Virus record (IMG/VR): IMGVR_UViG_2529293223_000008
Reading direction: 5' to 3' (one strand)
DNA length: 6,515 bases
Origin: a virus
Lineage: Duplodnaviria > Heunggongvirae > Uroviricota > Caudoviricetes
The translations under genes were made by a program, and so were the position numbers. The notes under the pieces are model-generated. The model was not told the origin of the DNA. It ran no database searches and saw nothing but the letters and a program-made list of their open reading frames with translations. Positions 6,358 to 6,515 of the stretch are shown here, piece by piece (the stretch's first letter is position 1; the number at the start of each line of letters is the position of its first letter).

Positions 6358-6363
6358 AGGAGG
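6358..6363 (+). promoter_or_regulatory. Shine-Dalgarno sequence (AGGAGG) for the hok-like ORF
   Basis: Perfect AGGAGG 8 nt upstream of ATG 6372. Confidence 0.6.
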
Positions 6364-6371
6364 CAAGCGCC

Positions 6372-6515
6372 ATGTCGCAAAAATCGCTAATCGCCATCAC
6401 CACACTGTGCGTGACGGCAATCCTCATCATCTGGATGTTGCAGGGTTCGCTCTGCGAGATACGGATGAGTTTCTGGGGAGCGGAGTTTGCGGCGTTCTTA
6501 CAATGTAGACAGTAA
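6372..6515 (+). CDS. hok: Hok/Gef-family-like type I toxin (small membrane peptide), 47 aa
   Basis: Translates to MSQKSLIAITTLCVTAILIIWMLQGSLCEIRMSFWGAEFAAFLQCRQ. Single hydrophobic helix, then SLCEIR, then E-x-AAFL near the C-terminus, the layout of Hok-family toxins (HokA-like ...SLCELH...ELAAFLAC as I recall it). Strong ribosome-binding site. Below the ORF-track size cut-off. Stop coincides with the window end, so the 3' UTR is not visible. No overlapping mok-like frame with a canonical start found. Confidence 0.6.
   Translation: MSQKSLIAITTLCVTAILIIWMLQGSLCEIRMSFWGAEFAAFLQCRQ

Follow-up and report, generated by a model that had tools for sequence, protein, structure and literature searches.

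In the textbook view, control of hok/sok toxin-antitoxin loci goes via mok, a reading frame that begins upstream of the toxin gene, and in the hok/mok/sok (parB) locus of plasmid R1 translation of mok up to the hok Shine-Dalgarno (SD) sequence is needed for Hok synthesis (PMC9841398). The mok ATG is located 8 nt after a GAGG motif and 57 nt before the hok ATG in R1-type plasmids, in hokC of Escherichia coli K-12 and in hokW of phage 933W. Among prophage-borne loci, hokW/sokW is an experimentally validated toxin-antitoxin system that aids phage release (PMC8621323). The newest surveys of the family left mok unanalysed, and a 2026 Hok catalogue declares mok, Sok and mRNA structure to be outside its analysis (bioRxiv 10.1101/2025.08.07.668861). 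Here we analysed a hok/sok locus at the right end of a 6,515-nt stretch of phage DNA (IMG/VR record IMGVR_UViG_2529293223_000008; the whole stretch is referred to as the window), which belongs to a subfamily that, as sequence comparison strongly supports, has no mok reading frame at the canonical place. The toxin gene of this locus is already known, since databases and a catalogue already list it and its close relatives have been cloned for toxicity assays. Its mok-less regulatory variant appears to be undescribed: the literature searched held no description of a mok-less Hok cluster, with an earlier mention being possible because two key papers lie outside that search.

The toxin gene (6372-6515, plus strand) runs from ATG 6372 to TAA 6513-6515, 47 codons plus stop, and encodes the peptide MSQKSLIAITTLCVTAILIIWMLQGSLCEIRMSFWGAEFAAFLQCRQ. 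Its SD sequence AGGAGG (6358-6363), 8 nt before the ATG, reads AAGGAG in most aligned relatives and overlaps the spacer and the -35 box of the Sok promoter on the opposite strand. The original prediction, a reading of the letters alone, had given this ORF (open reading frame) and this ribosome site at the same positions, had noted in the peptide the motifs SLCEIR and E-x-AAFL, both of which are present (the second as E-F-AAFL), and had placed the product in the Hok family, proposing a Pfam search as a check. The PF01848 (HOK_GEF) profile does match residues 7-45 with 29.3 bits (E 6.5e-7), above its gathering cut-off of 22, and PHROG 251 matches over the full peptide length (E 2.8e-21), so that a chance ORF can be dismissed. 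Moreover, the peptide has the size (about 50 aa) and the N-terminal hydrophobic helix typical of the family, and the residues conserved in >80% of 1264 Hok peptides (M1, C16, T18, L30, C31, E32 and E41 of the Hok logo) have their counterparts, in order, in M1, C13, T15, L27, C28, E29 and E38 of the window peptide. Scores stayed far under the cut-offs of the NCBIfam HokA equivalog NF007290 (34.1 bits vs 89) and of the Hok subfamily NF007279 (23.2 bits vs 73), which indicates that the protein is not HokA and belongs to a separate subfamily. This subfamily is Hok cluster 72 of Escalera-Maurer et al. (bioRxiv 10.1101/2025.08.07.668861), which corresponds to PHROG 251 and includes gp52 of phage P88; the window protein is 85-89% identical to its members P0005-P0013 and 72_1621, and differs from other members by one extra residue (47 aa) and an end in RQ.

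The hok frame (frame 0, position modulo 3) is closed upstream by TAG 6342-6344, so that an in-frame N-terminal extension is impossible and the ATG is not internal to a larger gene, a possibility that had been left standing when the ORF was first noticed. In agreement with this, 43 homologues of 46-47 aa from E. coli, Shigella and Salmonella all start with MSQK, and an N-terminal extension was found in none of the longer database homologues, which are C-terminal read-through or frameshift alleles. In several subfamily alleles (among P0002-P0038), loss of the stop codon or a frameshift near codon 35 lengthens the product to 59-81 aa; these alleles are probably decaying copies. Over 36 distinct intact ORFs of the subfamily, the average ratio of non-synonymous to synonymous polymorphism (pN/pS) was 0.13, and by this measure the peptide is under purifying selection. 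Two members of the cluster, 72_1589 and 72_1621, have been cloned for toxicity drop assays in a study in which 42 of 45 Hok constructs were toxic, the three non-toxic ones carrying other identifiers (bioRxiv 10.1101/2025.08.07.668861). It is thus strongly supported that the ORF encodes a Hok-family inner-membrane toxin, and toxicity of the window allele is predicted.

The ORF had been called unannotated, which is true of the gene track supplied with the window and not of RefSeq, GenBank and PHROGs, where the protein and its relatives are annotated; the identical protein is recorded on 99 contigs (Shigella, Escherichia and other Enterobacteriaceae) as "Hok/Gef family protein". RefSeq phage records (L100, 759-899; L102, 760-900) and PHROG 251 name the 46-aa Hok "MokW-like host killing". 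This is a naming problem, as a "MokW-like" label has been given to a Hok, and to one from a mok-less subfamily that lies outside the HokW subfamily.

At the canonical mok position the window reads GTC (6320) followed by TAA (6323). Frame 1 contains the stops TGA 6334 and TAG 6337, and frame 2 contains TAA 6323-6325, after which it is open from 6326 to 6505 with no ATG, GTG or TTG before GTG 6407, exactly as the original prediction had described the two frames; all three frames of the window are therefore closed between 6323 and 6344. This arrangement is general. Among 31 distinct leader variants, representing 98 loci of the subfamily, none has an ATG, GTG or TTG 3-12 nt after the GAGG motif. 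Frames 0 and 1 are closed in all 31, at -30 and at -35 or -38, and frame 2, the mok frame of R1, is closed in 15 of them by several different stops. The lack of a mok start in every variant, taken together with the pN/pS of 0.13, argues for a trait of the subfamily and against damage to the window copy, and the absence of mok from its canonical place is strongly supported by these alignments for the subfamily as a whole. A different regulatory arrangement and a degenerate locus had both been suggested at the outset; we favour the former and not the latter, because the other regulatory parts are conserved, the peptide appears to be under purifying selection, and the cluster members that were taken into toxicity assays are absent from the three non-toxic constructs. 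The strong SD sequence, which had been taken as a pointer away from mok, is not a valid one by itself, as R1 hok and hokW also have good SD sequences.

A mini-ORF in the window (TTG 6333-ATA-GGT-TAG, to 6344) was considered as a substitute for mok and rejected, since it is not conserved, with GTC or GTA replacing its TTG start in several variants, and lacks an SD sequence. As a separate observation, the frame of mok relative to hok varies among canonical loci. In mokC (L010), mokW and an R1-like IncFII plasmid, mok is in frame with hok and its ATG is 57 nt upstream (L099, 294-353; L103, 522-581), whereas the published numbering of R1 (mok A116, hok A174; Mok Q15 G16 E17 E18) implies 58 nt and another frame (PMC9841398).

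The hok mRNA is predicted to be ~360-410 nt long in total. Its 5' 288 nt are in the window (6228-6515, plus strand), comprise a 144-nt leader and the ORF, and begin with GGGTGCC, which is invariant at the mRNA 5' end of relatives. Rfam model RF01794 matches 6228-6382 (plus strand) over its full length with 48.9 bits (E 6.8e-9), under the gathering score of 59; the shortfall was located at a shortened segment between the target hairpin and the hok ATG, which explains the sub-threshold score. Named "sok antitoxin", RF01794 corresponds in practice to the leader of hok, read in the sense direction as far as the hok AUG, so that the match locates the leader and not the antisense gene. The mRNA runs ~70-125 nt past the window, and this part was read from a proxy, the relative L007, which has an identical ORF and is 99.6% identical to the window over the last 898 nt. 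Past the hok stop codon, L007 carries a GC-rich 3' hairpin, the fbi element AAGGCACCC (57-65 nt after the stop) and an intrinsic terminator, so that the fold-back element and the terminator that had been expected downstream are both present in this relative, just past the position of the window end.

The fbi element complements the mRNA 5' end GGGUGCCUU (6228-6236). This 5' end forms part of the tac element GGGUGCCUUUC (6228-6238), which is predicted to pair with the 3' fbi in the full-length mRNA or with 6276-6287 in the processed mRNA. The minimum free energy (MFE) structure of the RNA ending at fbi has a 15-bp pairing of the 5' and 3' ends, and the RNA truncated after the 3' hairpin, taken as the processed form, folds with the local tac stem (6228-6238/6276-6287) and with a hairpin that spans 6308-6350. 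When these landmarks were applied to an R1-like plasmid locus, they gave 397 nt for the full-length and 358 nt for the processed mRNA; the published R1 lengths are ~398 and 361 nt, and this agreement supports the choice of landmarks. The strand that pairs with tac in the processed form is the ucb or anti-SD box GGAAAGGCCCC (6276-6287), which in the full-length form would pair instead with GAGGC (6308-6312). Alignment cells of the ucb element were paired in both structures at 90-94%, compared with 26-53% for slid controls. In R1, a GCCCC/GAGGC pair with an A.C mismatch is the stem between the mok SD and its anti-SD (PMC9841398).

The hairpin at 6308-6350, present in the processed-RNA MFE structure and in the consensus fold, is the putative Sok target. 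It consists of a 5' arm GAGGCCCUAACC holding the SD-like GAGG (6308-6311) that is the mok SD of canonical loci, a loop (6320-6338) and a 3' arm, dcb, GGUUAGCGCCUC; in 37 leaders the arms are invariant and the loop is variable. A further helix encloses the hok start codon, with 6372-6381 pairing with 6486-6495 inside the ORF (10 bp, AUGUCGCAAA/UUUGCGGCGU) in single-sequence and consensus folds. Its pairs are invariant within the cluster and hence without covariation support; the R1 counterpart is CCAUGAAA/UUUCAUGG. In a diverged relative from Salmonella enterica subsp. diarizonae (L018, 1073-1342; peptide MLQKPLL...), ACGAG replaces the GGAG SD and the tac stem is shortened, and the Sok promoter motif is kept.

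That motif, on the minus strand (6338-6366), consists of TTGCCT (6366-6361), a 17-nt spacer and TAACCT (6343-6338), and is the only one of its kind in the window, where 0.01 matches were expected by chance. Of 103 loci, 97 have a single copy of the pattern TTGCYY-N17-TAACCT, located at the homologous place, and these include 933W hokW/sokW, in which the annotated SokW 5' end is 7 nt after TAACCT. Mutation of the sokW -10 box abolished sokW function (PMC8621323). A generic scan for consensus promoters requiring four of six matches per hexamer found nothing near hok or Sok; TAACCT has three. The predicted Sok RNA (6277-6331, minus strand, ~55 nt) comprises a ~15-nt 5' tail, a long GC-rich hairpin and the tail CCUUUCC; its fold of -23.7 kcal/mol (z = -3.4) has the architecture of the annotated SokW and SokC, from which by analogy we infer a start at ~6331 and an end near 6277. 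The weak point of this RNA is the run of only 3 U after the hairpin. Relatives carry a second allele of the terminator hairpin, in which compensating changes preserve the perfect stem. The 5' tail has its complement in the loop of the hairpin at 6308-6350. Altogether, a ~55-nt antisense Sok RNA from a conserved promoter in the leader, complementary to nt 6277-6331, is strongly supported, its transcription being predicted; promoter and hairpin fall in the interval 6250-6400, for which a search for an antisense RNA had been proposed.

The loop (6320-6338; columns 95-117 of alignment A5) is the only hypervariable segment of a cassette that is otherwise 90% identical, and the cassettes look mosaic. 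Such hypervariability is expected for a specificity determinant, and suggests, as far as sequence comparison goes, that Sok specificity has diversified among co-resident prophages, with up to nine copies per genome.

How the toxin could be controlled without mok is suggested by the spacing in the leader. The target hairpin and the hok ATG are 21 nt apart in the window; the corresponding distance is 31 nt in the R1-like locus as well as in hokW, and 32 nt in hokC. The ~10 nt shorter spacer would make the end of the hairpin 3' arm, GCCUCUCC (6346-6353), double as an anti-SD for hok, since GAGGC (6308-6312) and the hok SD GGAGG (6359-6363) are alternative pairing partners of this sequence. In both the full-length and the Sok-blocked fold, the hok SD is in a 5-bp hairpin with GCCUCUCC, extended by GCGC/GCGC, and in the processed fold only 3 bp of this pairing are left. 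According to this scheme, the arm would be kept in the target hairpin in the 3'-processed mRNA, leaving the hok SD comparatively open. End pairing of the full-length mRNA, or occupation of the 5' arm and loop by Sok, would free the 3' arm to close the hok SD. RNase III cleavage of the Sok-hok duplex probably adds decay, as in R1.

Accessibility of the hok site was judged by the predicted cost of opening it, as the states could not be told apart by the mean unpaired probability of the SD. For 11 variants of this cluster, the cost was 6.9-10.9 kcal/mol in the processed RNA, 11.6-14.9 kcal/mol with the Sok target blocked and 10.7-14.1 kcal/mol in the full-length RNA, so that end-pairing or Sok binding raises it in the model by +2.5 to +6.9 kcal/mol. 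In the R1-like control, the hok site required 20.1 (processed), 20.5 (Sok blocked) and 20.4 kcal/mol (full length), and the mok site 7.2 (processed) and 13.6 kcal/mol (full length). In the hokW control, the corresponding values were 11.1, 10.5 and 13.5 kcal/mol for hok, and 8.7 and 15.1 kcal/mol for mok. Blocking by Sok closed the hok site in neither control, and it was their mok sites that responded to the fold. These costs indicate that the hok site of the cluster behaves like the mok site of canonical loci. We give an even chance to the proposal, derived from this modelling, that the hok ribosome-binding site is itself the target of Sok and of the fold-back structure, without mok coupling. 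A fuller, evolutionary version, in which cluster 72/PHROG 251 dispensed with mok, a leader contraction of ~10 nt turned dcb (the old partner of the mok SD) into an anti-SD for hok, and Sok binding and end-pairing came to gate the hok ribosome-binding site, is put forward tentatively, as possible and somewhat short of probable.

Several points weigh against direct control. Thermodynamic modelling is the sole basis of the mechanism, and the effect, across the set, was smallest for the window-like sequence (+2.5 kcal/mol). Between states the SD kept the same unpaired probability (0.18-0.19), and in every state the hok start codon is in the 10-bp long-range helix, whose R1 counterpart is thought to be the reason why coupling is needed there. 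The complementarity of GCCUCUCC to the SD is not independent evidence, because it is given by the ancestral GAGGC/GCCUC pairing. The end-paired and local folds differ by 0.6-2.3 kcal/mol, and such near-equal energies in the model are compatible with a switch and are no proof of one. Covariation tests were uninformative on sequences that are 90% identical, and the 3' part of the mRNA is that of L007, beyond the window.

Part of these data could be accommodated if Sok exerted no translational control, the hok site being constitutively but weakly usable and Sok serving only to make an RNase III substrate that destroys the processed mRNA. The predicted duplex of ~55 bp ends ~24-25 nt upstream of the SD and leaves the ribosome site uncovered, the unpaired probability of the SD is equal in all modelled states, and RNase III contributes to repression in hokW/sokW (PMC8621323) and in R1 (PMC4147584). 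Repression nevertheless persists without RNase III in R1 (PMC4147584) and partly in hokW (PMC8621323), and the opening energies shift consistently on Sok blocking in 11 of 11 variants and not in the two controls. We therefore consider an action of Sok through RNase III only to be rather unlikely.

The start-codon helix is also what lends some weight to a mok of a non-canonical kind, as it suggests the need for an unwinding ribosome. Such a leader ORF would be read in frame 2 from the AUG or GUG of GGAUGUGG (mRNA nt 45-49), from a UUG in the loop, or from a near-cognate AUC or AUA 8 nt after GAGG, and the window allele, with TAA 6323, would be translationally silent. Frame 2 is indeed open from nt 45-49 into hok in 16 of the 31 variants (68 of 98 loci), stops in the variable loop are fewer in this frame (9 sequences) than in the other two (19 and 32), and the UUG at -46 of the commonest variant is mok-like in its accessibility (6.6 kcal/mol processed, 13.4 kcal/mol full length). 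The remaining 15 variants, however, close frame 2 by several stop-creating changes while hok stays intact, at about the rate expected for unconstrained loops, and the cluster as a whole shares no start codon. The UUG, which lacks an SD, is found in one variant group only. The upstream AUG at mRNA nt 45 was judged unlikely to act as mok, as its SD is poor (GAAGG, 4 nt away) and its opening costly: 12-14 kcal/mol in the processed RNA, with processing failing to open it in three of four variants. A non-canonical leader ORF is accordingly regarded as unlikely, and direct control of the hok site remains the reading that we prefer.

The window is the right end of an HP1/P2-like prophage; it matches E. 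coli chromosomes, and the genes upstream encode a tail-fibre assembly protein, an HP1-ORF34-type baseplate protein and a 562-aa baseplate protein. PADLOC gave no match for Hok or its neighbours, the three upstream ORFs being baseplate and tail proteins and not defence genes. The insertion sequence (IS) IS150 occupies 4176-5618, is 99.4% identical to other IS150 copies and has a 3-bp duplication of its target, seen in the triplets at 4173-4175 and 5619-5621. The insertion falls in a non-coding stretch that separates the baseplate gene from the hok cassette, ~600 nt upstream of the latter; the best-matching E. coli chromosomes lack the element, and L007 and L001 represent the same locus without IS150. 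The hokA/mokA locus of K-12 is likewise cut by IS150. Between IS150 and the cassette (5619-6215, ~600 nt) no protein-family match was obtained, and a 102-aa ORF in this segment (5706-6014) is without a Pfam match; a terminator-like hairpin is found on the minus strand at 6132-6115.

The window begins to resemble hok cassettes from other prophage contexts precisely at 6216, and this position marks the left border of a mobile cassette. This boundary coincides with the -10 box of the putative hok promoter, TAGAAT (6216-6221, plus strand). The -35 position of the window reads GTAGCA and agrees with the consensus in three of six letters, for which reason the hok promoter, whose activity we infer from sequence, is expected to be weak. 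At the same place, P88 and Stx2a phages have TTGCCG-N17-TAGATT, 6 nt before GGGTGCC.

This poor -35 region, together with IS150 600 nt upstream and the frameshifted or stop-less alleles found elsewhere, could be taken to indicate an inert remnant, with hok as prophage cargo that is decaying beside IS150 and no longer expressed. The hok loci of K-12 are known for such a fate: Pedersen and Gerdes reportedly found in 1999 that they are inactivated, often by IS elements. In this case IS150 is outside the cassette, which starts at 6216; the ORF, the SD, the Sok promoter, the hairpins, tac and, in L007, fbi are intact, and identical or near-identical to widespread alleles; and the pN/pS of 0.13 also speaks against decay. 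An inert remnant is thus highly improbable.

The same cassette was found at prophage ends next to different host genes (serS, greA and a tRNA cluster), after gpD in phage P88 (P88/Xuanwuvirus), and in Stx2a-converting phages. In P88_4B11 (Peduoviridae), a small gene with a transcriptional-regulator annotation stands between gpD and the cassette. Many IMG/VR prophage contigs, the window included, end at the hok stop codon. Matches to the subfamily were present in 1750 of 5426 complete E. coli genomes, with up to nine copies per genome. By analogy alone, its role is likely to be prophage retention, or help with lysis or exclusion. Contigs labelled as a Planococcaceae metagenome-assembled genome (L014), Vagococcus sp. 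(L015) and Xanthomonas pisi (L017) carry E. coli-type hok cassettes with 70-87% protein identity, which most likely reflect assembly contamination and not host range.

A widespread mok-less subfamily would offer a simple natural system in which to ask whether coupling is needed, and would pose the question of how an antisense RNA bound ~25 nt upstream of the SD can silence a toxin. If direct control is true, it would be a natural demonstration that translational coupling is not obligatory in hok/sok regulation. About a third of complete E. coli genomes contain a match to the subfamily, which is also carried by Stx2a-converting, P88-like and P2-like phages.

Compared with known systems, the locus has every defining hok/sok feature except mok. 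With hok/mok/sok of R1 it shares the toxin family, the mRNA length (~400 nt full, ~360 nt processed), the tac/fbi end pairing, the ucb/GAGGC anti-SD stem, the Sok-target hairpin, the 3' protective hairpin and the start-codon helix, and the R1 Sok promoter is at the same place (TTGCGC-N17-TATCCT vs TTGCCT-N17-TAACCT here). It differs in that R1 has the mok ATG 8 nt after GAGG, with its translation required for hok (PMC9841398), in place of GTC followed by TAA; in the model, moreover, no state opens the R1 hok site and regulation acts on the mok site, whereas here it would fall on the site of hok itself. The hokW/mokW/sokW loci of Stx2 phages 933W and Sp5 are also prophage-borne and have identical Sok promoter hexamers and the same Sok architecture. 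Identity with hokW is nevertheless ruled out, as the 933W record holds a 51-aa HokC-like peptide and a canonical, in-frame mokW. The leader can be aligned over its whole length with that of hokC (gef)/mokC/sokC of E. coli K-12, and SokC has a comparable geometry, the difference being that mokC is annotated 19 codons upstream, in frame. The closest parallel to the proposed mechanism is found outside the family, in the type I system AapA1/IsoA1 of Helicobacter pylori, which is said to involve 5'-3' pairing and activation by 3' processing. In this system the toxin mRNA (PMC5416894) folds itself into an untranslatable form and an antisense RNA acts on it without a leader ORF, as would be the case here; AapA1/IsoA1 differs in that its toxin family and RNAs are unrelated to those of hok/sok and IsoA1 overlaps the toxin ORF region.

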